Source of the DNA: Oscillospiraceae bacterium
GTDB taxonomy: Bacteria; Bacillota; Clostridia; Oscillospirales; Oscillospiraceae
Reading direction: 5' to 3'
DNA: 64,000 nt
NCBI GenBank assembly: GCA_902778275.1
Contig: CACYXE010000015.1
Location: 6,619 to 70,618 of the forward strand
The stretch's first letter is position 1. Each line of letters starts with the position of its first letter. Position numbers and translations under genes: made by a program. Of the stretch, positions 7,252 through 47,653 are shown in pieces. Below the pieces are notes generated by a model. It did not search any database. It was not told where the DNA came from and worked only from the letters and a program-made list of their open reading frames with translations.

Positions 7252-7262
7252 GTGCGCCTCCC

Positions 7263-7874
7263 TCAGCGGCTCAGCGCTGCGCGGCAGTAGTAGTTGAACA
7301 TCCGTTCCCGGGCCAGGGTGCTGCTGTCCATGTGGCCGGGATAGACCTCAAAGTCACCCTCCAGCAGGCAGAGCCTGCGCAGCGAATCCAGCTCCGTGTA
7401 CATATCGCCGCCGGGCAGGTCGGTGCGGCCGCAGCTGCCGCGAAACAGGGTATCGCCGGTAAAAAGGGCGTTCTCACAGCGGAGCGTGACCCCGCCGGGG
7501 GTATGACCCGGGGTACCGATCACTTCAAAGTGCAGGCCGGCCACGTCCACCACGTCGCCGTCCTTGTAGTAGACGCCGCCCTCGGGCAGAGTGAAGCGCC
7601 CATTGCCCAGGTTGATATGCCTGGCGTCGTCCAGCTCGTTCATATAGACAGGTGCGCCGGTCTCCCGCCGAACGCCATCCACCGCGCCGATATGGTCCCA
7701 ATGGGTATGGGTCAGCAGAATGGCCTTGCACTTGAGCTTATTGTCTTCCATGTAGTTGAGAATAGTGTTGGTCTCGTCGCCCGGATCAATGACGACACAT
7801 TCAAGGGTTTCCTCGTTGGTGACCACGTAGCAGTTGGTCTCCAACTGGCCCACAGGCAGGGTTTTGATCAGCAT
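7263..7874 (-). CDS. MBL-fold metallo-hydrolase (glyoxalase II-like)
   Basis: Start trimmed to MLIKTLPVGQLETNCY (ATG 7874). THTHWDH metal motif. Confidence 0.85.
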   Translation of the reverse strand: MLIKTLPVGQLETNCYVVTNEETLECVVIDPGDETNTILNYMEDNKLKCKAILLTHTHWDHIGAVDGVRRETGAPVYMNELDDARHINLGNGRFTLPEGGVYYKDGDVVDVAGLHFEVIGTPGHTPGGVTLRCENALFTGDTLFRGSCGRTDLPGGDMYTELDSLRRLCLLEGDFEVYPGHMDSSTLARERMFNYYCRAALSR

Positions 7875-7876
7875 AG

Positions 7877-8320
7877 TTACAGCTCCTTTGTATCCAGAAT
7901 GATGGTGACGGGACCATCGTTGATCGACTCCACAAGCATTTCCGCGCCGAAGGAACCGGTCTCCACACGGAAGCCCTGCTCCCGGCACTTTTCGATGACC
8001 AGCTCATACAGAGGGATGGCGGTATCCGGCCGGGCGGCCTTGGAAAAGCCCGGGCGCCGGGATTTGCAGTCGGCAAACAGGGTGAACTGGCTGATGATCA
8101 GCAGCTCCGCCCCGGCGTCCTTGGGGTTGACGTTCATCTTGCCGTTTTCATCTTCAAAGATCCGCAGGCCGCAGATCTTGTCGGCGATTTTCAGGGCCTC
8201 CGCCTCGCCGTCCTCCTGATGAACGCCCAGCAGGACCAGAAAGCCCTTGCCGATGTTGCCCTGGACTTGACCGTCTATGGTGACGGAGGCGGATCTTACA
8301 CGAGTAAGCACTGCTCTCAT
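7877..8320 (-). CDS. dtd: D-aminoacyl-tRNA deacylase
   Basis: 147 aa. GKGFLVLLGV and SQFTL motifs characteristic of Dtd. Confidence 0.92.
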   Translation of the reverse strand: MRAVLTRVRSASVTIDGQVQGNIGKGFLVLLGVHQEDGEAEALKIADKICGLRIFEDENGKMNVNPKDAGAELLIISQFTLFADCKSRRPGFSKAARPDTAIPLYELVIEKCREQGFRVETGSFGAEMLVESINDGPVTIILDTKEL

Positions 8321-8338
8321 AGAAAAGCTCCTTTCGCT

Positions 8339-10576
8339 TCAGCTGCCGTTGCGGGTGACGCTGGTCACAGCGGGGATCGCCTGCAGGCGGCCCATGATGT
8401 AACGCACCTCGGCGGCGTTTTTGACCTCCAGCGTGATCACGGTGAGGGCCAGGTTCCCGCCGGTGTTGCGGGAGGAGAGATTTCGCACCTTGGCGTTGAG
8501 GGCGTTGAGCACGGTGGCAATGTCCATGACCAGGCCGGAACGGTCTTTGGAAGCAATGGTCAGGGTGGTCACGTAGCTGTCGGTGGTCTCCCTCGCCCAG
8601 GACACACGAATCCAGCGGCCCTCGTTCTCGGCGTTGGCCAGGCTCTTCTGATAGTTGCTGCAGTCCTTGCGGTGGATGGATACACCCTGCCCGCGGGTGA
8701 TGAAGCCGATGATATCGTCGCCGGGCACGGGGGTGCAGCAGCGGGAGAACTTGATCAGGCAATTGTCCAGCCCCTCTACCAGGATCCCGTGGACAGCCTT
8801 GCCCTCTTTTTTTGCGTTCTGCTCCCGGCGCTCCGCCGCGGCTGCGACCTTATCCAGCGCGGTCTTGCGGTCGGGCTTGGCGTTCTTGATCTCGTCCCGC
8901 AGACGGTTGGCCACCCGGCCCACGGTGATGCCGCCGTAGCCGATGGCGGCATACATGTCCTCCGTAGAGGTGTAGGAGAGGCGCTTGAGGATGGGGGCCA
9001 GGATCTCCTCGTCCAGCACATCATCCAGGGACAGGCCGTTGTGCTTGAGCTCGTCCTCCAGCATTTCCCTGCCGCGGATCACGTTTTCTTCCCGCCGCTC
9101 CTTCTTGTACCACTGCTTGATCTTGGTACGGGCGGAACCGCTCTTGACGATGTTCAGCCAGTCACGGCTGGGGCCGGGGGCGGATTTGGAGGTGCGGATC
9201 TCCACGATATCGCCGTTTTGCAGCACATAGTCATAGGTGACGATGCGGCCGTTGACTTTTGCGCCCACCATGTGGTTGCCCACGTCGGAATGGATGCTGT
9301 AGGCGAAGTCGATGGGGGTGGCGCCCGCCGGCAGGTTGATCACGTCGCCCTTGGGGGAGAACACGAACACCTCGTCGGCAAACATATCGATCTTCAGATC
9401 GTGGAAAAAGTCCTGCGCGTCGGACTCCTGCTGGGTCTCCAGCAGGCGCCGTACCCAGGCGAACTTGTCCTCGTCGCCGCTGCGTACCGCGTCACCGCCG
9501 TCGGACATTTTGTATTTCCAATGAGCCGCGATGCCGTACTCGGCGGTATGGTGCATCTCCCAGGTGCGGATCTGCACCTCAAAGGGGATGCCTTCCGTGC
9601 CGATGACGGTGGTATGCACGCTCTGATACATGTTGGGCTTGGGGGTGGAGATATAATCCTTGAAACGGCCCGGCACAGGCTTGAACATGTCGTGGATGAT
9701 TCCGAGCACATTATAGCAGTCGGGGATGGTGTCTACGATCACACGGAAAGCGCACAGGTCGAAGATGCCGTCGATGTCCAGCTTCTGGGCGTACATCTTC
9801 CGGTAAATGCTGTAGACGTGCTTGATGCGGCTGTAAATGGTGGCCTGGATGCCCAGGGCCTCCAGCCGGTCCTGGATCTTCTTCTCCATGCTGGACATAA
9901 AGCCCTCCAGCATGGGGAGCTTCTCCTCCAGAGACTTGGTGATCTCCATATAGCCGGCGGGGTCCAGGTACTGCAGGGACAAGTCCTCCAGCTCCCACTT
10001 GGCCCGCTGCATGCCCAGACGGTGGGCGATGGGGGCGTAGATCTCCATAGTCTCCAGAGACTTGGCCCGCTGCTTTTCGGTGGTCTGGTAGGCCATGGTC
10101 CGCATGTTGTGGAGCCGGTCGGCGATCTTGATGAGGATCACGCGGATGTCCTTGGCCATAGCCATGAGCATCTTGCGCAGGTTCTCCATCTGCTCCTCTT
10201 CCTTGCTGGTGTACTGGACACGGGTCAGCTTGGTAACGCCTTCCACGATATCCGCCACCGGGACACCGAACTGATGGGCGATATCCGCATGGGTCAGGGT
10301 AGTGTCTTCGATCACATCGTGCAGCAGGGCCGCGACGATGGAATCCTCATCCAGACCCAGATCCACCGTGATATCCGCGGCGGCCACGCAATGGGTCACA
10401 TAGGGAGAGCCGTCCTTGCGCAACTGCCCCGCGTGGGCCTGCTTGGCCATCTCATAGGCGGCGCGGATGCGCTCCATATTCACAGGATGCCCGGAAGTAC
10501 GCAGCTTTTCCTCCAACTGAGAGAACATAAGATCCGGATCCAGGGGCTTATTCTCTTGTAGCATTTCTTCCTGCAT
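8339..10576 (-). CDS. relA: Bifunctional (p)ppGpp synthetase/hydrolase (RelA/SpoT homologue)
   Basis: Start trimmed to MQEEMLQ (ATG 10576, AAGGAG SD). HD hydrolase motif HDVIEDT, synthetase domain, TGS and ACT-like C-terminus. Confidence 0.92.
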   Translation of the reverse strand: MQEEMLQENKPLDPDLMFSQLEEKLRTSGHPVNMERIRAAYEMAKQAHAGQLRKDGSPYVTHCVAAADITVDLGLDEDSIVAALLHDVIEDTTLTHADIAHQFGVPVADIVEGVTKLTRVQYTSKEEEQMENLRKMLMAMAKDIRVILIKIADRLHNMRTMAYQTTEKQRAKSLETMEIYAPIAHRLGMQRAKWELEDLSLQYLDPAGYMEITKSLEEKLPMLEGFMSSMEKKIQDRLEALGIQATIYSRIKHVYSIYRKMYAQKLDIDGIFDLCAFRVIVDTIPDCYNVLGIIHDMFKPVPGRFKDYISTPKPNMYQSVHTTVIGTEGIPFEVQIRTWEMHHTAEYGIAAHWKYKMSDGGDAVRSGDEDKFAWVRRLLETQQESDAQDFFHDLKIDMFADEVFVFSPKGDVINLPAGATPIDFAYSIHSDVGNHMVGAKVNGRIVTYDYVLQNGDIVEIRTSKSAPGPSRDWLNIVKSGSARTKIKQWYKKERREENVIRGREMLEDELKHNGLSLDDVLDEEILAPILKRLSYTSTEDMYAAIGYGGITVGRVANRLRDEIKNAKPDRKTALDKVAAAAERREQNAKKEGKAVHGILVEGLDNCLIKFSRCCTPVPGDDIIGFITRGQGVSIHRKDCSNYQKSLANAENEGRWIRVSWARETTDSYVTTLTIASKDRSGLVMDIATVLNALNAKVRNLSSRNTGGNLALTVITLEVKNAAEVRYIMGRLQAIPAVTSVTRNGS

Positions 10577-36223: not shown

Positions 36224-36658
36224 ATGATAGAACAAGATACCATCAAGCTGCTGCGGGAATGTGACGCGGGCGTAAAAATGGGCGTTAGCGCCATCGAGGA
36301 TGTGCTGGGTTACGTGCATGACGGTGAGCTGGAGCAAAAGCTGCAGACCAGCCGCCGGGAGCATGTTGCACTGGCCGGGCGGATCGAAGCGGAGCTCAAC
36401 CGCTTCCGGGACGTGGGGAAGGACCCCAATCCCATCGCGGCGAAAATGAGCTGGATCAAGACCAACGCGGAGCTGATGATGAACGGCACAGACCAGACCG
36501 TGGCGTCGCTTATGACCGATGGCTGCAACATGGGAGTGAAGTCCCTCAACCGCTACCTGAACGAATACAAGGCGGCGGACGAACAGTCCAAGGACATCGC
36601 CAAGCGGCTGATCCACCTGGAGGAACAGCTGACAGGGGACATGCGCGCCTATCTTTGA
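36224..36658 (+). CDS. Hypothetical all-helical 144-aa protein (possibly a four-helix-bundle/ferritin-like family)
   Basis: GGGGGAG SD and heptad-like helical sequence. The family assignment is uncertain. Confidence 0.4.
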   Translation: MIEQDTIKLLRECDAGVKMGVSAIEDVLGYVHDGELEQKLQTSRREHVALAGRIEAELNRFRDVGKDPNPIAAKMSWIKTNAELMMNGTDQTVASLMTDGCNMGVKSLNRYLNEYKAADEQSKDIAKRLIHLEEQLTGDMRAYL

Positions 36659-36662
36659 AACG

Positions 36663-36696
36663 AAAAAGGACCCGGCCCTGCGGCCGGATCCTTTTT
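36663..36696. terminator. Bidirectional terminator
   Basis: AAAAAGGACCCGGCC / GGCCGGATCCTTTTT (one mismatch) between convergent genes. Confidence 0.7.
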
Positions 36697-36714
36697 CATT
36701 TGTCGGGTTTACAG

Positions 36715-38673
36715 TCAGGCTGCGTCAGCCAGTGCGCCGTTTACTGCGAAGTCAGAGGCGCTCTGACCAGCGATACGGCCGAAGACGATGAAGTCGCACA
36801 CAGCGTTACCGCCTACGCGGTTGCCGCCGTGGACGCCGCCGGTGACCTCGCCCGCGGCGAAGAGACCGGGGATCACATCACCCTTGGTATCAATGACCTG
36901 GGCGTCACTGTCGATCTTGACGCCGCCCATGGTGTGGTGGATACCCGCCGTCACATGGATGGCGTAGTAGGGACCCACATCCAGCGGCTGGGCAAAGCTG
37001 GTGCGTCCGAAGTCGGGATCGTTCTTCTCCTCTACATAGGTGTTCCAGGTGTTCATGGTGTCCGCAAACACCTCGGCGGGTACGCCCATGGCCTCGGCCA
37101 GTTCCTCGTAGGTCTCGCCCTTGACCATGAAGCCGCTCTTGTCATAACCCTGGATCACGCCGGAGGCGTCATACATCTTGGAATCCACTACCAGCCAGCT
37201 GGCGGAACCGGTCTGAGCGATCTCAGCTGCAGAAACCTTGTCACGGGTGGAGACCTCGTCGTAGAAGCGCAGGCCTTCCTGGTTGACCAGAATGGCGCCG
37301 TCACCACGGAGACCCTCGGTGATCAGGGAAGCGGTGTTGGCTTCCACAGTGGGATGGATCTGGATCTGCTCCAGGTCCACGGTGTCCGCACCGGCGGCCA
37401 CGGCCATGTCGATGCCCTGACCCTGGATGCCGGGGGCGTTGGTGGTCATGAAGCCTTCCAGCGCCGGCTTGTAGGACACGACCTTCTCCAGGTTCGCGCC
37501 GAAGCCGCCGGTGGCCAGGACCACGGAACCGGCGTTCACGGTGATGGTGTTGCCGGTCTTGCCGGTAGCGATGACGCCGACAGCCTCACCATTATCCATG
37601 ATAATCTCAGTGGCGGTGGTGTTGAGCAGCAGCTCGATGCCGCGCTCGGTCAGGTTGCGCTCCAGGATGGGGACGATGTAGGTGCCGACAGAGACCACCT
37701 TGCCCTCGTCGTTGACCGGGCGGTGGATGCGCTTGACAGATGCGCCGCCGAAGCTGGACACATTGTGCAGATCCGCGCCTACGGTGCTCAGCCATGCGAT
37801 GGCGTCCTCGCTGCTCTCAGTCAGGGTCTTGACCAGCTCGGGGTCGTTCAGCGCGCCGCCGCCGATCAGAGTGTCCAGCTGGAACAGCTCGGTGGAATCG
37901 AAATAGCCGGTGGGATTCTCCTGATAGGCTTCCCACTGCTCCTTGACGATGGCGGCCAGCTCCTGAATGCGTTCATTGTCGGGATAGTTCTCCGCAGCGG
38001 CAAGCTGCTTCTCCACGCCGGCGGATTCGCCGAAATCGTTGACATCCTGCCACTCGGTTTTGGCGGCGTTCATACCGCCGGTGGAACGGATAGAGTTGCC
38101 GCCCACCATGGCCTGGCTCTCCAGAACCAGGACGTTCATGCCAGCGTCATGGGCCACAATGGCAGCGGTCATGCCGGCGCCGCCGGCACCCACAACAACC
38201 ACATCCACATCGTAGGTGATGTCGGGCTCAGCCACTACTTCCACGGGAGCGAGCTCCGTTTCAAAGGCCGCCGCGTCGATGCCCGCATTGGCGAGAGCGT
38301 CACGGATGGCAGCCTTGATGCCGTCAGAGGTCAGGGTCGCGCCGGTGATGGCGTCTACCTGCAGGCTCTGGGCCTCATAGATGGCGACGGGCAGCTGATC
38401 CACTGCCACGGTGCCGATGCCTTCGGTCTCATCGTGCTTGGTCACATTGATCTGATAAATCTTTTCCGGCGTGGCGACCACTTCTACTTCAATGGGACCG
38501 TTTCTGCCGACGGCAGAGCCGGAAAGGGTTTGCGCTTCCGCGGAAACGTTGGCGTCACCCACCGTTTTCACCGTGTGGCTTGCGATGATGTTGGCCACCA
38601 GGAAGACCAGAAGGATCACGCCGCAGGCGATACCGATGATATCGAGCAGTTTCGCTTTCTTCTGCTTGTCCAT
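36715..38673 (-). CDS. Membrane-anchored flavoprotein reductase: FMN_bind domain plus FAD-binding fumarate-reductase/flavocytochrome-c-like domain
   Basis: Start at MDKQKKAK (ATG 38673, GGAGG SD). TM helix, FMN_bind block DAITGATLTS, VVVGAGGAGMTAA dinucleotide fold, HHTMGGVKID and GGNRVGGNA motifs. Confidence 0.85.
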   Translation of the reverse strand: MDKQKKAKLLDIIGIACGVILLVFLVANIIASHTVKTVGDANVSAEAQTLSGSAVGRNGPIEVEVVATPEKIYQINVTKHDETEGIGTVAVDQLPVAIYEAQSLQVDAITGATLTSDGIKAAIRDALANAGIDAAAFETELAPVEVVAEPDITYDVDVVVVGAGGAGMTAAIVAHDAGMNVLVLESQAMVGGNSIRSTGGMNAAKTEWQDVNDFGESAGVEKQLAAAENYPDNERIQELAAIVKEQWEAYQENPTGYFDSTELFQLDTLIGGGALNDPELVKTLTESSEDAIAWLSTVGADLHNVSSFGGASVKRIHRPVNDEGKVVSVGTYIVPILERNLTERGIELLLNTTATEIIMDNGEAVGVIATGKTGNTITVNAGSVVLATGGFGANLEKVVSYKPALEGFMTTNAPGIQGQGIDMAVAAGADTVDLEQIQIHPTVEANTASLITEGLRGDGAILVNQEGLRFYDEVSTRDKVSAAEIAQTGSASWLVVDSKMYDASGVIQGYDKSGFMVKGETYEELAEAMGVPAEVFADTMNTWNTYVEEKNDPDFGRTSFAQPLDVGPYYAIHVTAGIHHTMGGVKIDSDAQVIDTKGDVIPGLFAAGEVTGGVHGGNRVGGNAVCDFIVFGRIAGQSASDFAVNGALADAA

Positions 38674-38838
38674 TTGTCCCTCCATATGTATCGTTTTTTT
38701 TGGTGAGCAGGGGCCCTGCTCTTTATGTTGCACTTACAACAATAATACCCGATTCTTCTCTTTATTTCAATGGAGTCAGACAAAGAAATGCCAAAAATGA
38801 TTTGCCCTTTTTCGGGATGTTGATGTTTGACAATTAAC

Positions 38839-38936: not shown

Positions 38937-41621
38937 ATGGCAGAACTCAGACCCAAGATCGTAAAGCTATGTCATATCATTGGCGGCTTGACCGGCGTCG
39001 TCAACAAGATCGACGAGAACGCGCCGGAATACTACAGCCTGGCCGACATCCTGACGGATGACGAGGCTGACGTTGCCATCGCTGCGGGCCTGCGCAAGGA
39101 ACGTACCGCCGAATGGCTGGCCAAGAAGGTCGGCAAGCCGGTGGACGAAGTGGAGAAGATCGCAAAGCATCTGGCCTGGATCGGCGTGTTCCGCTGCACC
39201 TATGACAAGGAAGCGGGCGTGGACAAGTACTTCATGCAGATCTTCGCCCCCGGCATCATGGAGATGCTGGTCAACAACCAGGAGCTGCTGGATACCCATC
39301 CCGAGGTGGGACGCGCCTTTGAGGAGTACACCCGTATCCGTATGCAGACCATGAGCCCGCTGATCCCCAACGGCTACGGTCTGATGCGCGTGGTGCCGGT
39401 GGAGAGCGCCATCAAGGACATCCCCAATGTCAACGATTTTGAAAAGCTCAGCTATTATCTGAATAAGTACGACACCTTCTGTGTGTCTCCCTGTTCCTGC
39501 CGCGCTTCCCGCAGCTCCATCAATGATGGCTGCGGCCACCTGGCGGAGGAAATGTGCGTGCAGATGGGCAAGGGCGCGGAGCACTACATCCGTACCGGCC
39601 GTGCCCGCCAGATCAGCCGTGAAGAGGCGCTGGAGATCATTCATCGGGCCGAGGAAAACGGTCTGATGCACGACATCCCCAACATCGAGGAAGCCGGCGA
39701 GAGCGCCGCTATCTGCAACTGCTGCGCCTGCGCCTGCTTCGGCCTGCGCGTGGGCCTCATGTTCGGCGCCCGCGACGCCATCCGCTCCAACTTCCAGGCG
39801 GAAGTGGATGAGGCCAAGTGCGTGGCCTGCGCCCAGTGCGTGGAGGTCTGTCCCGCCAACGCCCTGAGACTGGGCCAGAAGCTGTGCACCACCGTGAACA
39901 TCGCCCCGGCCAAGTACACCAAGCTCTCCGAGCATATCGTGTCCAAGGAGGCCTGGAACCCGGATTACCGCGAGAACCGGGAGGACGTCATGCCCAGCGG
40001 CACCGCGCCCTGCAAGGTGGCATGTCCCGCACACGTTCCCGTTCAGGGCTATCTGAAGCTGGCGGCCCAGGGGCGTTACACCGAGGCTCTTGAGCTTATC
40101 AAGACCGAGAACCCGCTGCCCGCGGTCTGCGGACGTATCTGCAACAAGCGCTGCGAAGCGGAGTGCACCCGCGGCGGCGTGGACGAGGCGGTGGCCATCG
40201 ACGAAGTCAAGCGATTCATCGCCGACCATGACCTGAACAGCGAGACCCGCAGCATCCCCAAGATGGTCAACCAGATCGGCAGACCCTATGAGGAGAAGAT
40301 CGCCATCATCGGCTCCGGCCCGGCGGGTCTGAGCTGCGCCTACTATCTGTGCAAGAAGGGCTACAAGGTCACCGTGTTCGACCGCAACCCGGTCCCCGGC
40401 GGCATGCTGACCCTGGGCATCCCCAACTTCCGCCTGGAGAAGGATGTGCTCAACGCGGAGATCGACATCATCCGTGAGATGGGCGCGGAGTTCAGATGCG
40501 GCGTGGAGGTCGGCAAGGACGTGACCATCCAGCAGCTGCGTGAAGAGGGCTACAAGGGCTTCTATCTGGCCATCGGCGCCCAGAAGTCCAGCGCCATCGG
40601 TGTGCCCGGCGAGGATCTGAAGGGTGTTTACGGCGGCGTGGACTTCCTGCGGGAGGTCAACCTGGGCAAGAAGCCCAGGATCGGCAAGAAGTGCGCGGTC
40701 ATCGGCGCCGGCAACGTGGCCATGGACGTGTGCCGCACGGCGGTCCGTCTGGGCGCGACCGATACATACATCATCTACCGCCGCTCCCAGGCGGAGATGC
40801 CCGCCGATCCCGAAGAAGTGGCCGAGGCCATGGAAGAGGGCGTGCAGTTCCGTTTCCTGAACGCTCCCGTGGAGATCGAGGGCAATGACAAGGGCAAGGT
40901 CACCGCACTGAAGGTGGAGATCATGGAACTGGGCGAGCCCGATGAGAAGGGCCGCCGCAAGCCCGTGGGCACCGGCAAGTTCGAGACCATCAAGGTGGAC
41001 TCCGTCATCGGCGCCATCGGCCAGAAGGTGGACTGGGGCACGCTGGATGTGGGCGCTTTGGTAAAGACCGGCAAGGGTACCGCTGAGGCGGACGCCCTGA
41101 CCTATCAGACCGCCGAACCCGACATCTTTGTGGGCGGCGACGTGTACACCGGACCCAGCTTTGCCATCAACGCCATCGCAGCCGGCAAGGAAGCGGCCAT
41201 CTCCCTGCACCGCTATGTGCATCCCGGCCAGACCCTGACCATGGGCCGCGACCGCCGCGTCTACCGCGCGCTGGATAAGGACCATGTGCAGCTGAGCGTG
41301 GGCGGCTTCGACAAGGAGCACCGCCAGGTTCGCGGCTACAACGCCGAGAAGGCCAAGACCTTCGCGGACGCCCGCGTCACCTTCACCGAGGAGCAGGTCC
41401 GCAAGGAGACCGCCCGCTGCCTGGGCTGCGGCGCCACCAAGGTGGATCCCTACCTGTGCATCGGCTGCGGCATCTGCACCACCCGCTGCAAGTTCGACGC
41501 CATCCATCTCAAGAAGGTCCGCGACTGGCATGCCGGCACCTTTGAGACCATGCCCATCAAGGCGGCGGAGAATCTGGTCCGCAAGACCGGCGGCATCGTC
41601 AAAAGAGCGGTAACGAAGTAA
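38937..41621 (+). CDS. Multidomain Fe-S flavoprotein: Cys-rich N-domain, 4Fe-4S ferredoxin motifs and a GltD-like NAD(P)H/FAD oxidoreductase module
   Basis: CSCRASRSSINDGCGH, ICNCCACAC, CVACAQCVEVCP, CGRICNKRCEAEC, IIGSGPAGLSCAY, VIGAGNVAMD, and C-terminal CLGCG...CIGCGICTTRC. Confidence 0.8.
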   Translation: MAELRPKIVKLCHIIGGLTGVVNKIDENAPEYYSLADILTDDEADVAIAAGLRKERTAEWLAKKVGKPVDEVEKIAKHLAWIGVFRCTYDKEAGVDKYFMQIFAPGIMEMLVNNQELLDTHPEVGRAFEEYTRIRMQTMSPLIPNGYGLMRVVPVESAIKDIPNVNDFEKLSYYLNKYDTFCVSPCSCRASRSSINDGCGHLAEEMCVQMGKGAEHYIRTGRARQISREEALEIIHRAEENGLMHDIPNIEEAGESAAICNCCACACFGLRVGLMFGARDAIRSNFQAEVDEAKCVACAQCVEVCPANALRLGQKLCTTVNIAPAKYTKLSEHIVSKEAWNPDYRENREDVMPSGTAPCKVACPAHVPVQGYLKLAAQGRYTEALELIKTENPLPAVCGRICNKRCEAECTRGGVDEAVAIDEVKRFIADHDLNSETRSIPKMVNQIGRPYEEKIAIIGSGPAGLSCAYYLCKKGYKVTVFDRNPVPGGMLTLGIPNFRLEKDVLNAEIDIIREMGAEFRCGVEVGKDVTIQQLREEGYKGFYLAIGAQKSSAIGVPGEDLKGVYGGVDFLREVNLGKKPRIGKKCAVIGAGNVAMDVCRTAVRLGATDTYIIYRRSQAEMPADPEEVAEAMEEGVQFRFLNAPVEIEGNDKGKVTALKVEIMELGEPDEKGRRKPVGTGKFETIKVDSVIGAIGQKVDWGTLDVGALVKTGKGTAEADALTYQTAEPDIFVGGDVYTGPSFAINAIAAGKEAAISLHRYVHPGQTLTMGRDRRVYRALDKDHVQLSVGGFDKEHRQVRGYNAEKAKTFADARVTFTEEQVRKETARCLGCGATKVDPYLCIGCGICTTRCKFDAIHLKKVRDWHAGTFETMPIKAAENLVRKTGGIVKRAVTK

Positions 41622-41962
41622 TGCACGAGCTTGGAATTTGCGACGCCATGCTGAAGATGGTGCGCGGCATCATGAAGGATGAGGAGCTGGACGCCATCAC
41701 CCGCATCACGGTGGAGGTGGGCTCCCTCAGCGGGGTCATGCCCAACTTCCTGGCCGATTGCTGGGTAGCCGTCACCGATGGCACCGAGCTGGAGGAGACG
41801 GAGTTCGTGATCGAAGAGCTGGCCGGCACCGCCAAATGCCTGGACTGTCAGCGGGAGTTCGTCGCAGATCTGAACGACCTCAGCTGTCCCGTCTGCAAGG
41901 GGAAAAAGCTGATGCCGCTGACCGGACGCGATCTGACGCTCAAAGAGATCTTGGTACCATAG
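41621..41962 (+). CDS. hypA: HypA/HybF-type nickel metallochaperone
   Basis: 113 aa. N-terminal MHE nickel motif and a zinc ribbon CLDC-x13-CPVC. TAATG overlap with the upstream gene. Confidence 0.85.
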   Translation: MHELGICDAMLKMVRGIMKDEELDAITRITVEVGSLSGVMPNFLADCWVAVTDGTELEETEFVIEELAGTAKCLDCQREFVADLNDLSCPVCKGKKLMPLTGRDLTLKEILVP

Positions 41963-41981
41963 CAAGAGAAATACATGCTTG

Positions 41982-42015
41982 AATCCGCCTGAGGGTTTTC
42001 CTCAGGCGGATTTTT
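41982..42015 (+). terminator. Intrinsic terminator after hypA
   Basis: 13-bp stem AATCCGCCTGAGG / CCTCAGGCGGATT followed by TTT. Confidence 0.8.
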
Positions 42016-42047
42016 GCGTTACAAAAAGTTCATTTTTTGCCTCAGGT

Positions 42048-42067
42048 TTTCTAAGTCATTTCTAAGT
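42048..42067 (+). promoter_or_regulatory. Two TTTCTAAGT direct repeats with 11-bp phasing upstream of the VTC operon
   Basis: Repeats at 42048..42056 and 42059..42067, 50 nt upstream of the GTG start. Confidence 0.35.
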
Positions 42068-42116
42068 TTCCGGCGGTATGCTTTAGCCACAAGATGAAAC
42101 GCAGGAGGCGATAGCG

Positions 42117-42839
42117 GTGGAAAACAACATCTTTCAGCGGCACGAGATCAAGTTCCTGCTGGACAGCAGGCAGCGGGCCATCATGGAGCAGGCCTTTGCC
42201 GTGCGCATGGAGCCGGACCCCCACGGGCAGAGTACCATCTGCAACATCTATTACGACACCCCGGACTATCGGCTCATCCGCGAGTCTCTGGAAAAGCCCG
42301 TATACAAGGAAAAGCTGCGTATGCGCAGCTATGGGCAGGTGACCGGCGGCGGTGAGGTCTTCCTGGAACTGAAGAAAAAGTATGACGGCGTTGTATACAA
42401 AAGGCGCATCTCTCTCACCGCGCGGGATGCCGCGGCCTATATGAGCGGACGGGTCCCGCTCCCCGAGGACAGCCAGATCGGGCGGGAGATCGACTACTGC
42501 CGGAAGTACTACCGAAATTTGCGCCCGGCGGTGTATCTCTGCTATGACCGCTGCGCCTACTTCTCCACGGAGGATCCGGAGCTGCGGGCGACCTTTGATA
42601 AAAACATCTGTTGGCGGACTTATGACATGCGCTTGACGGCAGCGCCCGGCGGGGAGCATCTGCTTCTGCCCGGCCAATCCCTGTTCGAGGTCAAGACTGC
42701 CACAGCGATCCCACTGTGGCTGGTGGAGGTACTGGACCGGGCCGGGATCCGCCAGGCCTCCTTCTCCAAGTATGGCGAGGCGTATAGAATCATGAGCGAG
42801 CGGGCAAATAAAGAAAGACGAGGTGTCGGTTGTGCTTGA
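42117..42839 (+). CDS. VTC-domain (polyphosphate-polymerase-like, triphosphate-tunnel fold) protein
   Basis: GTG start with AGGAGG SD. RHEIKFLL N-terminus, YYDTPDYRL and KLRMRSYG blocks are typical of bacterial VTC-domain proteins. Confidence 0.82.
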   Translation: MENNIFQRHEIKFLLDSRQRAIMEQAFAVRMEPDPHGQSTICNIYYDTPDYRLIRESLEKPVYKEKLRMRSYGQVTGGGEVFLELKKKYDGVVYKRRISLTARDAAAYMSGRVPLPEDSQIGREIDYCRKYYRNLRPAVYLCYDRCAYFSTEDPELRATFDKNICWRTYDMRLTAAPGGEHLLLPGQSLFEVKTATAIPLWLVEVLDRAGIRQASFSKYGEAYRIMSERANKERRGVGCA

Positions 42840-43524
42840 ATCCTTTTTTTCCGGACTTTATACTGGCGGTACGGATCCCATTTCCCTGCCTGTGTTTCTG
42901 ACTTTGATTCTTTCGGCGCTGGTGATCGGCGCGGTGCAGGCCCTTGTGTATCTGCACAACAACAGCGGCAGCAAGAGCTTTGTGGTGACCCTGGCCACCC
43001 TTCCCGCCGTAGTCAGCACCATCATCATGCTGGTCAGCGGCAGCATCGGAGCGGGCGTGGCCGTGGCCGGGACCTTCTCCCTGGTGCGTTTCCGCTCCGC
43101 ACCCGGCAGCGGCAAGGAGATCGCGGCGGTCTTTACCGCCATGGCGGTGGGCCTGGCCTGCGGCATGGGCTGCCCGGGACTGGCCGCTCTGTTCGCCCTT
43201 GTCATGTGTCTGGCCGATACCCTGTATGCGAAGACCGGCTTTGGTGAGCGCAGGGGAGAGCAGCTGCACAAGTGCCTGCAGATCACAGTCCCGGAGAGTC
43301 TGGAATTTGGAGAGATCTTTGACGATCTCTTTGAGGAATACACCACCGAAGCCAAAATGACCCGGGTAAAGACCACCAACCTGGGCAGCCTCAACCGGCT
43401 GAGCTATGAGGTCACCCTCCGGAAAGGCGGGATCGAGAAGCAATTCATCGACGCGCTCCGCTGCCGCAACGGCAACCTGGAGATCAGCCTGTCCGAACGG
43501 ATGGAAGCATCCGCGGAACTGTAA
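42823..43524 (+). CDS. DUF4956 family membrane protein
   Basis: Overlaps the VTC gene end. TM-rich N-half and SLVRFRSAPG block. The start may be GTG 42832. Confidence 0.8.
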   Translation: MSVVLESFFSGLYTGGTDPISLPVFLTLILSALVIGAVQALVYLHNNSGSKSFVVTLATLPAVVSTIIMLVSGSIGAGVAVAGTFSLVRFRSAPGSGKEIAAVFTAMAVGLACGMGCPGLAALFALVMCLADTLYAKTGFGERRGEQLHKCLQITVPESLEFGEIFDDLFEEYTTEAKMTRVKTTNLGSLNRLSYEVTLRKGGIEKQFIDALRCRNGNLEISLSERMEASAEL

Positions 43525-43541
43525 GAAAGGACGGATCAAAC

Positions 43542-45242
43542 ATGAAAAAGTCATACAATCGTATCCTGGCGGTCCTGGTGGCGGGGACCATGCTGACGGC
43601 CTGCGGCAGCGCGTCCGCCCAGGCCGCCGAGAAAAACGAAAAAGCCGCCGACGCAATCACGGAAGCTGCAGAGCTTACCGAGATCCCATCCGCCGCAGCG
43701 GACGGGGACGCCCGGGAAGCGGAAATCAGTATCACCCTCAGCGATAAGAAGTCTGCCTCTTCTGACGACAGCGTCAGCATCAGCGGCAGCACGGTGACCA
43801 TCACCCAGGAGGGGACTTACCGCGTCAGCGGCACCCTCAGCGACGGACAGATCATCGTAGACGCCGATGAAAACGCCAAGGTCAAGCTGATCCTGGACGG
43901 CGCCGATATCAGCAAAGAGGGGAGCGCCGCCATTTACGTGCTCTCTGCCGACAAGGTCATCCTTTCATCCGCCGAGGGCAGCACTAACAGCATCCGCTCC
44001 TCAGGCGAATTCGTGCAGACCGATGACAACAATGTGGACGCCGCGGTTTTCGCCAAGTGCGATCTGAATCTGAACGGCGACGGCGTCGTCAACATCAGCT
44101 GCGAGACCGGCCACGGTGTGGTCAGCAAGGACGACCTGAAGGTCAAGGACGGCGAGTGGAACATCACCGCCGCCGGAAAGGGCCTCAGCGGCAAGGACAG
44201 CGTCACCGTGGAGGACGGCACCCTGAACATCACCAGCGGCACCAAGGGCATCTGGTCCGACAACGACGAAGATGAGGAGAAGGGCAGCATCGAGATCCTG
44301 GGCGGCAGCATCACCGTCACATCTGCAGACGACAGCATCCACGCCGGCAACACTGTCAGCATCAGCGGCGGCGAGATGACGCTCAGCAGCGCTGACGACG
44401 GCATCCATGCAGATAACACCCTGACCGTCAGCGGCGGCAAGGTCGACGTTACCAAGAGCTATGAGGGCCTGGAGGCCAAGGATATCGACATCAGCGGCGG
44501 CGAGATCAGCATCGCTGCCTCCGATGATGGCATCAACGCGGCGGGCGGCAACGACGGATCCAATGCCTTCGGCCCCTTCGGCGGCGATCCGTTCGGCTCT
44601 GACAGCGGCTCCACCCTGACCATCAGCGGCGGTACCCTTGTGGTGGATGCAGGCGGCGACGGCCTGGACGCCAACGGCGAGCTGACCGTCAGCGGCGGTG
44701 TGATCTACGTGAGCGGCCCCACCAACAGCGGCAACGGCGCGCTGGACTACGGCACCGACGCCGCCATCACCGGCGGCACCATTATCGCAGTGGGTGCGGC
44801 GGGCATGGCGGAGAACTTCGGAAGCAAGTCCACCCAGGGCTGCATCCTGCTGAACCTGAGCGCCGCCCAGACGGCAGGCACCACGGTATCCATCGAAGAT
44901 GAGAACGGCAAGGTGCTGGCCAGCTACACCCCCGGCAAAAACTATCAGTCCGTGGTCATCAGCACGGAGGGCATGGAAGTGGGCGGCACCTACACCGTCA
45001 AGGCCGGATCGGTCAGCGAAGAGATCACCCTGGACTCTGTCATCTACGGCAGCGGTATGGGCATGGGCGGCTTCGGCGGCATGGGCGGCCATGGAAACAT
45101 GGGCGATCCCGGCTGGAGCGGTCAGGGAGCCGGCTGGGAAAGAAACGGTGCGGGCGGTTTCGAGGGCCGGACAGGCGGACCCGGCGGCTTTGGCGGCCGC
45201 CGCGGCCAGGGCGGCTTCCCTCAGCAGTCGAGCGCGGCATAA
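43542..45242 (+). CDS. Secreted lipoprotein with a Cthe_2159-like parallel beta-helix (annotated family: carbohydrate-binding domain protein) and a Gly-rich tail
   Basis: Lipobox LTACGS. Repeated DDxIHA/DDGINA and ISGG/VSGG turns every 20-25 aa. C-terminal G/M/F-rich low-complexity tail. Confidence 0.78.
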   Translation: MKKSYNRILAVLVAGTMLTACGSASAQAAEKNEKAADAITEAAELTEIPSAAADGDAREAEISITLSDKKSASSDDSVSISGSTVTITQEGTYRVSGTLSDGQIIVDADENAKVKLILDGADISKEGSAAIYVLSADKVILSSAEGSTNSIRSSGEFVQTDDNNVDAAVFAKCDLNLNGDGVVNISCETGHGVVSKDDLKVKDGEWNITAAGKGLSGKDSVTVEDGTLNITSGTKGIWSDNDEDEEKGSIEILGGSITVTSADDSIHAGNTVSISGGEMTLSSADDGIHADNTLTVSGGKVDVTKSYEGLEAKDIDISGGEISIAASDDGINAAGGNDGSNAFGPFGGDPFGSDSGSTLTISGGTLVVDAGGDGLDANGELTVSGGVIYVSGPTNSGNGALDYGTDAAITGGTIIAVGAAGMAENFGSKSTQGCILLNLSAAQTAGTTVSIEDENGKVLASYTPGKNYQSVVISTEGMEVGGTYTVKAGSVSEEITLDSVIYGSGMGMGGFGGMGGHGNMGDPGWSGQGAGWERNGAGGFEGRTGGPGGFGGRRGQGGFPQQSSAA

Positions 45243-45324
45243 AGCGCTGGACCATGGGTGAAAGCCTATATGTCTGCCGGAAAAAGAACAGACGCGGACA
45301 TCTGACCAATACAGCGAAAACAGG

Positions 45325-45365
45325 AAGACGAGACCGTGGCGCACGCCGCAGTCTCGTCTTTTTCG
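45325..45365 (+). terminator. Terminator after the beta-helix gene
   Basis: AAGACGAGAC / GTCTCGTCTT stem followed by TTTT. Confidence 0.6.
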
Positions 45366-45414
45366 TTATTCCGTACGAAGCGTGTATGCTGTCGCCAACG
45401 GGTATTTTGAATTT

Positions 45415-45480
45415 TTTCTAAATAGCTGTTGACAGGTCGACGCCCCGGGAGTATAATGCATTTAGATAAATTTCTAAATA
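45415..45480 (+). promoter_or_regulatory. Consensus promoter of sdpRI flanked by repeated TTTCTAAATA boxes
   Basis: TTGACA (45429), 17 nt, TATAAT (45452). 10-bp direct repeats at 45415..45424 and 45471..45480. Inverted repeat ATTTAGA-N6-TCTAAAT at 45460..45479. Confidence 0.7.
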
Positions 45481-45501
45481 CTTAAGGCGGAGGAGAAAGA
45501 A

Positions 45502-45786
45502 ATGGCGTTCGCGGACACCTTCAAAGCACTGTCCGATCCGGTGCGGCGGCAAATCCTGGAGCTGCTGAAAAACGGGCCGCTTTCTGCCGGAGATATCGGC
45601 GCCCATTTTGATATGACAGGCGCCACGATCTCGTATCACTTGAAGATCCTGAAGCAGGCCGGACTGGTTTTTGAGAGCCGTGAGAAAAACTTTATTTATT
45701 ATCAGCTGAACACAAGCGTGCTGGAAGAGATCCTGCTGTGGATATCGACCATCAAAGGAGGGGATACCGATGTTGAAAGCCAATAA
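45502..45786 (+). CDS. sdpR: ArsR-family autorepressor, SdpR type
   Basis: FKALSDPVRRQILELL and GATISYHLKILKQAGL wHTH; 94 aa. Overlaps the downstream SdpI gene. Confidence 0.85.
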   Translation: MAFADTFKALSDPVRRQILELLKNGPLSAGDIGAHFDMTGATISYHLKILKQAGLVFESREKNFIYYQLNTSVLEEILLWISTIKGGDTDVESQ

Positions 45787-46411
45787 GAAGACCTTGCTCA
45801 TTACCAGTATTGTGACAGTCCTGCCGGTGCTGATCGGTCTGTTGTACTGGAGCCGTCTGCCGGACGTGATGGCGACCCACTTCGGGATGCATAACGAGGC
45901 GAATGGATTCAGCAGCAAAGCGGTTGCGGTTTTTGGCCTCCCGCTGTTTTGCCTGGCGATCCTTTGGCTGGGCGCGGTGGTCACATCACGGGACCCCAAA
46001 AAACAGAATATCAGCCCGAAGCTGTTTGTTATGTGTCTGTGGATTGCGCCGCTCGTCTCGCTCATCTGCGCGGCGACGATCTATCCGGTGAATCTTGGCG
46101 TCCCTGTAAACGTCACTTTTATTGCGGAATTACTGGTGAGTGTGATGCTGATCGTCCTCGGCAACTACCTGCCAAAGTGCAGGCAGAATTATACGATCGG
46201 CATCAAGCTGCCCTGGACACTGGCAAATGAGGAAAACTGGAACCGGACCCATCGATTTGCCGGATATCTCTGGCTCGTGTGCGGCTTGCTCATGCTGGCG
46301 CTTTCACTCTGCGGGGCGATGCAGGCAGCCTGGCTGATTGCCATTCTTATTGGAATGGTCCTTGCCCCTTTCGCTTTTTCTTTCTGGCTGCATGTGAAAA
46401 AAGATCTGTAA
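45770..46411 (+). CDS. sdpI: SdpI/YhfL family immunity membrane protein (DUF1648 + SdpI domains)
   Basis: LPDVMATHFG (DUF1648) and GNYLPKCRQNYTIGIKLPWTL (SdpI signature). Confidence 0.85.
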   Translation: MLKANKKTLLITSIVTVLPVLIGLLYWSRLPDVMATHFGMHNEANGFSSKAVAVFGLPLFCLAILWLGAVVTSRDPKKQNISPKLFVMCLWIAPLVSLICAATIYPVNLGVPVNVTFIAELLVSVMLIVLGNYLPKCRQNYTIGIKLPWTLANEENWNRTHRFAGYLWLVCGLLMLALSLCGAMQAAWLIAILIGMVLAPFAFSFWLHVKKDL

Positions 46412-46479
46412 GAGTTCAGGGCACTTTTATCTTTTGACGGATCGTGATATACTTTGGAAAAGGAGATGGAGAGGATCGT

Positions 46480-46788
46480 ATGCACAGAAAGGTGACTTTT
46501 GCCCAGGCAAAGCAATTGCTGGATACCCTGCCAGACTGTGTGCTGATCGACGTGCGGGAGGAAGAAGAGTATATCACCGGGCACGCCGTGGACGCGGTGC
46601 TGCTGCCGGTGGATGAGCTGACGGAGGAGACGGCAGCGCAGGTGATCCCGGACAGGGAGACCCCGGTGCTGGTCTACTGCCGCAGCGGTTACCGCAGCGA
46701 TATGGCGGCCCGGAAGCTGGACGGCATGGGCTATACGCAGGTTTACGATATCGGCAGTCTGATCGGATGGCCCTATGGATTGATCTGA
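46480..46788 (+). CDS. Rhodanese-like single-domain sulfurtransferase
   Basis: Start trimmed to MHRKVTF (GGAGAGGA SD). Active-site loop CRSGYRS. Confidence 0.85.
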   Translation: MHRKVTFAQAKQLLDTLPDCVLIDVREEEEYITGHAVDAVLLPVDELTEETAAQVIPDRETPVLVYCRSGYRSDMAARKLDGMGYTQVYDIGSLIGWPYGLI

Positions 46789-46827: not shown

Positions 46828-46858
46828 GGGACGGCGCTGCTCCATGCAGCGCCGTCCC
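46828..46858. terminator. Bidirectional terminator
   Basis: 13-bp perfect stem GGGACGGCGCTGC / GCAGCGCCGTCCC. Confidence 0.75.
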
Positions 46859-46876
46859 CGTGTTTCTGAGGCGGAT

Positions 46877-47485
46877 TCAGGCCATATCCATGGCCTTTTT
46901 GATGTTCAACAGCAGTTCGTCGTAGCTGTCGCAGGCTGGGAGGTCCGGATTGTCCCGCTTGATGTTCTCCGTGCTGCGGAAAAGGATGCCGGCCTTGCTG
47001 GCCCGGATCATATCCAGATCGTTGAAGCTGTCGCCGCAGGCGATGGTCTCATAGCCCACAGACTGGAATGCACGGACCGTAGAGTACTTGGTGTTGGTGG
47101 TGCGCATCTTGTAGTCCGCGATGCTGCCGTCCTCGGCCACGACCAGTTCGTTGCAGAAGATGGTGGGCCAGCCCAGCTTCTTCATCAGGGGTGTAGCAAA
47201 CTGGGAGAAGGTGTCGCTGAGGATCACCGCCTGGGTGATGGAGCGCAGCTCATCCAGAAATTCCTTGGCGCCGGGCAGGGGATCGATGGTCGCGATGGTA
47301 TCCTGGATCTCCTTCAGACCGAGACCATGCTCCCGCAGGATACCCAGCCGCCAGCGCATCAGCTTATCGTAATCCGGCTCGTCCCGGGTGGTGCGGCGCA
47401 GCTCGGGAATGCCGCTGGCTTCAGAAAACGCGATCCAGATCTCCGGGACCAGAACGCCCTCCAGGTCCAAACAGGTGATATACAT
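46877..47485 (-). CDS. thrH: ThrH-type HAD phosphatase (phosphoserine phosphatase / homoserine phosphotransferase)
   Basis: Start trimmed to MYITCLDLEGVLVPEIWIAF. Near-colinear with my recollection of Pseudomonas ThrH (CLDLEGVLVPEIWI, ILSDTF, GDSFND). Confidence 0.82.
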   Translation of the reverse strand: MYITCLDLEGVLVPEIWIAFSEASGIPELRRTTRDEPDYDKLMRWRLGILREHGLGLKEIQDTIATIDPLPGAKEFLDELRSITQAVILSDTFSQFATPLMKKLGWPTIFCNELVVAEDGSIADYKMRTTNTKYSTVRAFQSVGYETIACGDSFNDLDMIRASKAGILFRSTENIKRDNPDLPACDSYDELLLNIKKAMDMA

Positions 47486-47653
47486 ATCGCTACCGTCCTT
47501 TATCTTGATTGTTATTAGTAAACAACATGCTTTCCGTTTTGTCAAGCGGCAGACGGAAGAAGGAAAGCGGCAGAAATTTCTGTTGCATTTTGCGGAAAAC
47601 TTGGTATAGTATTAAACAGATGGAACACACAAATAAACACAGGAGGGACCATC

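Follow-up and report, generated by a model that had tools for sequence, protein, structure and literature searches.

A conserved VTC-DUF4956 gene pair with a beta-helix lipoprotein gene in gut Clostridia: a candidate membrane-coupled polyphosphate polymerase under putative two-component control

Three genes that lie together on the forward strand of a 64-kb window of Oscillospiraceae DNA (the whole stretch analyzed; all operon coordinates are window positions) raise the question of why a protein resembling the polyphosphate (polyP) polymerase of the yeast VTC complex should be encoded in one operon with an integral membrane protein and a secreted lipoprotein. The genes, which occupy 42117-45242, encode a VTC-domain protein (g1), a DUF4956 protein (g2) and a Cthe_2159-type lipoprotein (g3). 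An earlier note on this DNA had suggested, by analogy with yeast VTC, that the first two products synthesize a phosphoanhydride polymer and translocate it, with the third binding or using it outside the cell. Having followed up this suggestion by homology searches, structure prediction and comparison of gene neighborhoods, we tentatively propose, as a reading that could well prove wrong, that these genes specify a VTC-type polyP polymerase that is regulated and coupled to the membrane, and that its product would be passed across the membrane to a surface partner.

Which of the three genes belong together can be judged from gene order. In a scan of one genome per species, in which at least 570 VTC relatives were confirmed and neighborhoods were taken from the best 80 loci, a DUF4956 gene lies directly 3′ of the VTC gene on the same strand in 78 of the 80 species-level loci; different genes follow VTC in the two exceptions. 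The reverse comparison used an independent metagenome sample, seeded on a DUF4956 protein 35% identical to g2 (as a 10-sequence alignment), and placed a VTC gene directly 5′ of DUF4956 in 70 of the 72 testable loci. Among further distant DUF4956 proteins, VTC was upstream in every case with context, adjacency being kept at 35% identity. The modal VTC/DUF4956 junction in both samples is an 8-nt overlap (34 metagenome loci). The best 80 loci come mainly from Oscillospiraceae, Lachnospiraceae, Ruminococcus and unclassified Clostridia bins, with a few from bins labeled Spirochaetes, Bifidobacteriaceae and Tidjanibacter, and the adjacency is found also in Bacilli, Peptostreptococcales and Actinomycetota. 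Co-occurrence of the two genes, which the earlier note had stated, is far beyond chance in both directions. Its further statement, that the pairs recur with beta-helix or CotH exoproteins across Firmicutes and Bacteroidetes, stands for Firmicutes, whereas the Bacteroidetes part is carried only by a B. thetaiotaomicron DUF4956 locus tag and one Tidjanibacter-labeled bin.

The position of g3 is less constant. The place directly after DUF4956 is taken by a g3-like gene in 55 of the 80 genome loci and in 44 of 68 testable metagenome loci. Because the pair is found without g3 already at 75% identity to g1, and elsewhere stands alone, we regard the core as two genes, a point that the earlier note did not make, and g3 as the commonest of several third genes. 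The others are Listeria-Bacteroides-repeat proteins, a sortase-domain protein, an Ig-like/GH81 surface protein, a Cls-like phospholipase D (PLD) and, in more distant branches, CotH kinases; the CotH form occurs also in Nonomuraea. Where it can be classified, the third gene product is usually extracytoplasmic or membrane-associated, which fits outward delivery of a product.

Several individual loci extend this picture. VTC proteins with 47-59% identity to the Oscillospiraceae-type query are encoded in two Bifidobacteriaceae, one Tidjanibacter and two Spirochaete bins, and the full three-gene form is present in the Tidjanibacter bin and in one Bifidobacteriaceae bin; either the module crosses phyla or the contigs were mis-binned. 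An E. faecalis cassette (LR962858.1, 6986-12113), on a 98-kb enterococcal plasmid record without annotation, has the order VTC-DUF4956-response regulator-histidine kinase-CotH, and hence places the VTC-DUF4956 module on mobile DNA in a pathogen-relevant genus. Pseudobutyrivibrio xylanivorans plasmid pNP95 carries CotH-VTC-DUF4956 at 7221-10360 inside an exopolysaccharide cluster, where the neighbors are GT2, GT4, acyltransferase, pyruvyl transferase and radical SAM genes. In Acetoanaerobium noterae, the order response regulator-histidine kinase-VTC-DUF4956 is followed by a gene (8492-10048 of that locus) for a PLD of the cardiolipin-synthase type, with PLDc_N and two PLD motifs, a membrane phosphotransferase and not an exoprotein.

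The three domain assignments made in the earlier note, VTC, DUF4956 and Cthe_2159, all score above the Pfam cut-offs. The first gene (42117-42839, +; GTG start) encodes 240 aa, of which residues 7-226 match positions 1-234 of the 235-position VTC profile (PF09359; E=2.1e-38, 132.6 bits, cut-off 23), and the protein consists of the VTC domain alone, with no signal peptide, SPX domain or transmembrane (TM) segment. A search of the PDB with the single sequence was marginal; profiles of 34 and of 76 homologues reached Vtc4 at E=1.9e-7 and E=2e-11 (3g3q), respectively. The significant matches of the g1 profile in the PDB were VTC proteins only (E 2e-11 to 8e-6), and the sole non-VTC match was ygiF at E=0.19. 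An AlphaFold2 (AF2) model of g1, built from the 34 close homologues (pLDDT 78), had Vtc4, Vtc3 and Vtc2 tunnel domains as all of its 13 best PDB fold matches (query TM-score, TMq, 0.65-0.71; E 1e-12 to 1e-9), with 3g3r at TMq 0.71 and E 2.6e-12. The next best matches were the generic CYTH/TTM enzymes, namely the triphosphatase ygiF (5A60), Sulfolobus SaTTM (7NSD) and class IV adenylate cyclases. These share with g1 the superfamily fold and its basic and acidic tunnel residues, but they are more distant (TMq 0.41-0.52) and are soluble, stand-alone enzymes.

The profile alignment also relates the active sites (Vtc4 residues are numbered natively from 8i6v chain E). R196 and K200 of Vtc4 correspond to R8 and K12 of g1, R264 and R266 to R68 and R70, E279 and K281 to E84 and K86, K294 and R296 to K95 and R97, Y359 and R361 to Y143 and R145, R373 to R157, and D377 to D161. 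With the exception of Y143 (at least 90%), all of these g1 residues are invariant in the set of 76 homologues (41-94% identity), including K12, the counterpart of the catalytic Lys of Vtc4. The HMMER alignment to Vtc4 ends at g1 residue 171, and the C-terminal sub-profile was not significant, giving a weak match ('LMEIK') to Vtc2 only. The C-terminal active-site residues of Vtc4 are E426, S457 and K458; by eye, the invariant g1 residues E191/K193 and S217/K218 are the likely counterparts of E426 and of S457/K458, respectively. The N-terminal strand of g1 reads R-x-E-x-K, where Vtc4 has R-Q-T-T-K and canonical CYTH enzymes have E-x-E-x-K. Because Vtc4, Vtc3 and Vtc2 are the best fold matches, the profile matches point the same way and the catalytic Lys is retained, we place g1, on sequence and model, with the VTC proteins within the tunnel-enzyme superfamily, in agreement with the earlier note.

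If g1 is a VTC-type enzyme, then the question is what its constant partner might be. The second gene (42832-43524, +) encodes a 230-aa protein (233 aa from GTG 42823) that matches DUF4956 (PF16316; E=1.6e-16, 60.9 bits, cut-off 30.6), as do all 110 of its aligned relatives. A cluster-representative search found 2,697 DUF4956 clusters at 50% identity, nearly all about 225 aa long and alignable end to end. The AF2 model from 110 diverse members (pLDDT 91) bears out the polytopic protein described in the earlier note: five TM helices are predicted, at 22-46, 51-70, 73-89, 97-114 and 118-138, followed by a C-terminal domain (149-225) modeled as beta-alpha-beta-beta-alpha-beta, ACT/ferredoxin-like. 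A family-wide charge bias puts loops 44-54 and 86-100 of g2 in the cytoplasm, together with its C-terminal domain, and the acidic N-terminus outside. Strict invariance is confined to P61, G83 and R91, and F85, R89, F90 and S92 are kept in at least 90% of the family. From these conserved positions and the topology given by the charge bias, the motif G-x-F-S-L-V-R-F-R-S is predicted to lie at the cytoplasmic end of TM3 and in the TM3-TM4 loop; in the model, the RFRS loop is where the exit of the g1 tunnel could dock.

The ancestry of g2 is harder to place. The sequence profile found no relative in the PDB, and Foldseek with the pLDDT-91 model matched nothing to the membrane part and gave only weak ferredoxin/ACT/PII-type matches to the C-terminal domain (E at least 0.013). 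A distant kinship with MgtC/SapB/YhiD (PF02308) is possible from sequence. In a Pfam search g2 itself did not match PF02308 (cut-off 31.4 bits), and 36 of the 110 DUF4956 proteins had sub-threshold matches (best E 1.2e-4). When the DUF4956 alignment was compared with YhiD/MgtC alignments by hhalign, the two were colinear over their full length with scores of 23-33 (P 0.013 to 0.00026) at a probability of only 3-42%, as compared with a score of about 13 and P of about 0.4 for reversed controls. Both families are about 215-230 aa long, with five predicted TM helices, a small cytoplasmic ACT-like domain and a G-L-x-x-G-x-G-x-Y motif in the penultimate helix. In contrast, the MgtC motifs E-R-Q and D-P-S-R are absent from DUF4956, which has F-S-L-V-R-F-R-S. 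Since all matches lie below the Pfam cut-off and the hhalign probability is low, this homology is unproven, and we know of no MgtC protein that pairs with a VTC enzyme.

Two other leads on g2 are recorded for completeness. Weak matches to the prokaryotic STING domain (PF20300) in 14 of the 110 proteins (best E 0.0038) are probably noise. Natural VTC-DUF4956 fusions were also considered; the few database cases (P0158, P0240, P0252 and P0282) hold fragments of the domains only and, being partial chimeras that look like frameshift or assembly products across the 8-nt overlap, carry no weight as evidence of contact.

The third gene (43542-45242, +) encodes a 566-aa lipoprotein. Its N-terminus is MKKSYNRILAVLVAGTMLTAC, with the lipobox L-T-A-C (MLTAC) at Cys20; an acidic linker containing Ser and Lys, a Cthe_2159 beta-helix (PF14262; E=1.6e-79, 267 bits) and a Gly/Met/Pro-rich tail follow in that order. 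Residues 49-300 match the structure of Cthe_2159 itself (4peu/4phb, E=3e-37), and 28 Gly residues fall in the final 66. The description of g3 in the earlier note as a Cthe_2159-like lipoprotein with a Gly-rich tail is thus borne out in each part. Among 56 g3 homologues, 41 have a lipobox-like motif by regular expression and most have Gly/Pro/Met/Gln-rich low-complexity tails. The protein is very acidic (pI 4.1, net charge about -50). The Clostridium thermocellum protein Cthe_2159 (PDB 4PEU/4PHB), a PL9-lyase-like beta-helix, is reported to bind substrates of the cellulosic and pectic kinds; g3 differs from it in having about double the length, a lipoprotein signal, an acidic linker and a Gly-rich tail, and in being encoded in a VTC operon.

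The linker that follows the lipobox (residues 21-80, window 43602-43781) contains an acidic Ser/Lys/Asp cluster, …SDKKSASSDDS…. Poly-acidic Ser/Lys tracts have been reported to be sites of polyP attachment or binding in eukaryotes, and the g3 linker resembles them. A Met/His-rich 'copper-binding tail' was also considered for g3. The tails of the homologues contain 4.9% Met as compared with 1.3% in the body (about 4-fold), the enrichment is about 2-4-fold over both samples, being weaker in the second, and His is not enriched at all. With so modest a Met enrichment and none of His, the idea survives only within the metal-stress explanation weighed below.

How might the operon be controlled, a matter on which the earlier note is silent? 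A perfect direct repeat, TTCTAAGT-cat-TTCTAAGT, with an 11-bp phase lies at 42049-42067 (+), overlaps the -35 position and is a putative regulator site; it is the single match in the window. Homologous loci have TTTAAGKT-N3-TTTAAGKT 55-70 nt 5′ of the VTC start, and then a -10 box (TATnaT). A repeat matching at least 14 of 16 positions was present in 51 of 81 upstream regions; among 1620 shuffles and 1620 random segments, 2 and 18, respectively, matched as well. When the neighbors of the 80 loci were clustered, the two dominant families were an OmpR-type response regulator (Response_reg and Trans_reg_C domains) and a HisKA/HATPase kinase whose two TM helices flank an extracytoplasmic loop of about 125 aa. 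This two-component system (TCS) adjoins the operon, co-directionally or divergently, in 42 of the 80 loci and is adjacent also in Paenibacillus, Acetoanaerobium and E. faecalis; both families are absent from the 64-kb window. Direct repeats that have an 11-bp phase and overlap -35 are the classic arrangement for activators of the OmpR/PhoB type, and by this analogy the OmpR-family response regulator is the putative ligand of the promoter repeat. The nearest named NCBIfam families are RppA/RppB, followed by the heavy-metal CztRS/SilRS/CopRS subfamily, all below their cut-offs. We have not named the TCS RppA/RppB, as the match is sub-cut-off and PhoB/PhoR, CopR/CusS-type, WalK and BaeS score nearly as well.

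One possible hypothesis for why these genes are kept together is as follows. Cytoplasmic g1 would add the gamma-phosphate of ATP, or of another nucleoside triphosphate (NTP), to polyP in its basic tunnel, as Vtc4 does, and translational coupling would supply g2 in a fixed ratio. Oligomerization of g2 through its ACT-like domain would tether g1 at the membrane, where the nascent chain may be received at a ring of the cytoplasm-facing arginines R89 and R91, and g2 would then move the chain across. On the outer face, lipid-anchored g3 could capture the product through bound divalent cations, or otherwise use it. Transcription would be turned on by the OmpR-type regulator at the phased repeat when the kinase senses an extracytoplasmic signal. 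The polymerase activity, the g1-g2 contact, the oligomerization of g2, translocation, the role of g3 and regulator binding are what we infer here. A vectorial process is favored by the obligate, translationally coupled membrane partner together with the mostly extracytoplasmic third gene.

Several observations weigh against this hypothesis. No chain of a VTC complex was found with g2, either by PDB profile search or by Foldseek, so that homology of g2 to the yeast channel (Vtc1/DUF202) was rejected; a lone five-TM protein is not obviously a polyanion channel, and g2 may instead be related to MgtC/SapB proteins, which are regulators and not channels. The C-terminal Vtc4 residues E426, S457 and K458 were not aligned to g1 by any tool. 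The conserved basic tunnel residues are common to TTM hydrolases and therefore do not prove polymerization. As for g3, it is so acidic that it could bind polyP only through bridging cations, and in some genomes the pair has no exoprotein neighbor of any kind. Finally, the literature searched holds no functional study of any bacterial VTC protein or of DUF4956, in keeping with the earlier note, which knew of no experimental function.

One could envision other explanations that account for part of the evidence. The polymer made by g1 might stay in the cytoplasm, where bacterial polyP is normally found; g2 would then be an MgtC/SapB-like anchor or regulator, which might tie synthesis to membrane energization or to a ligand of its ACT-like domain, and g3 would be a co-regulated surface protein that binds carbohydrate or a cation. 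MgtC has the five TM helices and C-terminal ACT-like domain that g2 is predicted to have. This sharing of architecture, the weak matches in 36 of the 110 relatives and the colinear hhalign alignments above the reversed controls are consistent with such a role for g2; the occurrence of the pair without an exoprotein gene in some genomes and the cellulosic and pectic binding reported for Cthe_2159 also fit this explanation. However, the MgtC link falls under every significance cut-off, a soluble polymerase needs no obligate, translationally coupled membrane partner, and a g3 homologue next in about 65% of loci, where the next gene is usually extracytoplasmic, is hard to explain without export. 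We consider this explanation unlikely, though with a real chance of being right. Alternatively, g1 might be some other tunnel-fold hydrolase or transferase (a tripolyphosphatase, an NTP-dependent enzyme or a cyclase) that gates or energizes g2, itself a small transporter or sensor, the likeness to VTC reflecting common ancestry only. The TTM superfamily is chemically diverse, with ygiF, SaTTM and the class IV cyclases as the next-best folds of g1, its Arg/Lys/Glu set is conserved superfamily-wide, and the N-terminal strand of g1 differs from that of Vtc4. In addition, yeast Vtc2 and Vtc3, both among the matches of g1, have the VTC fold without polymerase activity. Since only VTC proteins were significant by profile, the fold clearly has more in common with Vtc4 than with any hydrolase and the Lys equivalent to K200 is invariant, we think that this is distinctly unlikely.

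A further possibility is that the module serves cation or metal stress: the kinase would sense an external metal, and exported or membrane-bound polyP, an acidic Ca-binding beta-helix and the Gly/Met-rich tail would buffer or sequester cations at the cell surface. PolyP chelates divalent metals, the TCS lies near RppA/RppB and then CztRS/SilRS/CopRS, its kinase has a sizeable extracytoplasmic loop, and the low pI of g3 and the Met-enriched tails of its homologues would suit such a role. On the other hand, PhoB/PhoR, WalK and BaeS match the TCS nearly as well, the tails show no enrichment of His and only a modest one of Met, and the neighbors of the 80 loci do not consistently include metal transporter genes; we regard this explanation as very improbable. 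ATP is unavailable outside the cytoplasmic membrane of monoderm bacteria, and the polymerase-translocase hypothesis could be extended by supposing that polyP is exported as an energy and phosphoryl currency, used by exoproteins to phosphorylate, or modify in some other way, wall polymers, exopolysaccharides or surface proteins, with a TCS that senses the outside controlling the supply. The users would be CotH in streptococci, enterococci, actinomycetes and exopolysaccharide loci, and the Cthe_2159 lipoprotein in gut Clostridia. We offer this extension as an improbable one, both for the currency and for its users.

The membrane-coupled polymerase that we favor can be compared with systems already described. 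Yeast VTC (Vtc4 with Vtc1/2/3/5; PDB 3G3Q, 3G3R, 7YTJ and 8I6V) resembles it in the tunnel fold and conserved Vtc4 residues of g1, in the obligatory pairing of a cytoplasmic enzyme with a membrane component, and in having partner proteins on the far side of the membrane. Unlike the yeast enzyme, g1 lacks SPX and a fused DUF202 TM region, and g2, with five TM helices and an ACT-like domain, has no detectable kinship to the three-TM Vtc1-type subunits. Yeast VTC is regulated by inositol pyrophosphates, whereas operons of the type in the window would be regulated by a TCS. The yeast analogy of the earlier note therefore fits in the active-site residues and fold of g1, its cytoplasmic location and the Arg motif of g2, and fails in that g2 is no relative of the yeast channel subunits. 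PPK1 and PPK2 would share a product with g1, polyP made from NTP, and their folds are unrelated; the PPKs are reversible cytoplasmic kinases making polyP from NTP without a dedicated integral-membrane partner or exoprotein.

Linkage of the two core families has been noted in passing in other settings. Whitfield et al. (bioRxiv 10.1101/768473) name cotH, 'poly-phosphate polymerase', DUF4956 and DUF4832 genes as accessory to the Gram-positive pel loci with which they are contiguous. In NELoc-2 of C. perfringens, VTC-'tubulin/FtsZ' pairs occur with CotH (Lepp et al., PMC2879425); judged by their size and order, the genes called 'tubulin/FtsZ' probably encode DUF4956 proteins and were annotated under an older scheme. 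These loci have the VTC and DUF4956 core of the window operon with an exported partner, and are associated with genes for cell-surface polymers. They differ in that the partner in the window is a Cthe_2159 lipoprotein and not CotH or DUF4832, and the 10 kb on either side of the window operon contain neither CotH nor DUF4832, and no pel, exopolysaccharide or glycosyltransferase cluster; the CotH-linked VTC protein of pNP95 is 29% identical to g1. Both papers list the genes only, without function, promoter or regulator, and DUF4956 otherwise appears only in transcriptome tables in the literature searched.

The boundaries of the operon are well defined. All three genes are co-directional and present at the positions given in the earlier note, which had described them as one transcription unit, and they are bracketed by the two strong hairpin-plus-U-run terminators that it had reported. 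At 41981-42016 (+) a Rho-independent terminator of the upstream hypA-like gene, with a 14-bp stem and a U run, forms the 5′ boundary; its hairpin (about 41981-42013) folds at -29.6 kcal/mol (z -7.8). The Rho-independent terminator that ends the operon, at 45319-45367 (+), is a hairpin followed by UUUUU (-29.4 kcal/mol, z -6.1). The folds were scored against 200 shuffles, none of which folded as well, and a simple consensus terminator scan missed both hairpins. A putative -10 box, TATGCT, can be read at 42077-42082 (+), 9 nt 3′ of the direct repeat, where homologous loci have their TATnaT boxes relative to the repeat, and the ribosome-binding site of g1, AGGAGG (42103-42108, +), lies 8 nt 5′ of the GTG at 42117. 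An Rfam scan of 41500-45600 returned nothing and thus gave no riboswitch or leader. Neither NCBIfam nor the PADLOC defense models matched g1, g2 or g3.

The junctions given in the earlier note need some revision. Its 17-nt overlap of g1 and g2 holds for the longest g2 reading frame, from GTG 42823. The GTG at 42832, 8 nt 3′ of GAGG, gives an 8-nt overlap and is also the public gene call; we consider it the better start because of the GAGG and because the 8-nt overlap is modal in homologues, so that the functional overlap, judged from sequence, is probably 8 nt. The gap between the g2 stop and the g3 start, given as 18 nt, measures 17 nt, and the g3 start is preceded by AAAGGA. Long antisense open reading frames (447-854 aa) at 36655-38706, 38967-41531 and 44001-45344, the last opposite g3, are listing artefacts driven by G+C and not genes.

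The genes on either side have features of their own. Upstream, the start of a HypA-family gene (41621-41962, 113 aa) coincides with the stop codon of the gene (38937-41621) for an 894-aa Fe-S/flavin oxidoreductase with Fer4_20 and Pyr_redox_2 domains, GltD-like; there are no other hyp or hydrogenase genes within 10 kb, an odd setting for the nickel-insertion protein HypA. Immediately 3′ of the operon, a promoter that matches the sigma-70 consensus perfectly (TTGACA-17-TATAAT, 12/12; 45429-45457) drives an ArsR/HTH_5 regulator gene (45502-45786) that overlaps one for an SdpI/DUF1648 membrane protein (45770-46411), an SdpR/SdpI-like immunity pair. Farther on, a GC-rich palindrome of 13-14 bp (46828-46859) separates convergent rhodanese (46444-46788, +) and HAD hydrolase (46877-47545, -) genes and, as the scan scored it on both strands, is probably a bidirectional terminator.

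The component Pfam families and, in passing, the VTC/DUF4956(/CotH) linkage were already known. What the literature searched does not contain is a quantification, in both directions, of the near-obligate two-gene core, the predicted DUF4956 architecture, the dedicated TCS with its promoter repeat, and the Cthe_2159-lipoprotein form that is dominant in gut Clostridia. From sequence and models, the operon appears to couple a VTC-type polymerase to a non-homologous membrane subunit. A homologue search with g1 found at least 7,900 relatives, and Oscillospiraceae, Lachnospiraceae and Ruminococcus of the human gut and the rumen contribute many of the members. The promoter repeat and the dedicated TCS offer a direct experimental handle on the inducing signal. 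Bacterial polyP synthesis has so far been attributed to PPK1 and PPK2; if the module is indeed a polyP synthase-translocase, vectorial polyP synthesis would have been solved a second time, by independent assembly, gut commensals would have a way of placing polyP on the cell surface or secreting it, and the linkage of extracellular CotH kinases with a 'polyphosphate polymerase' gene, long unexplained, would have a rationale.

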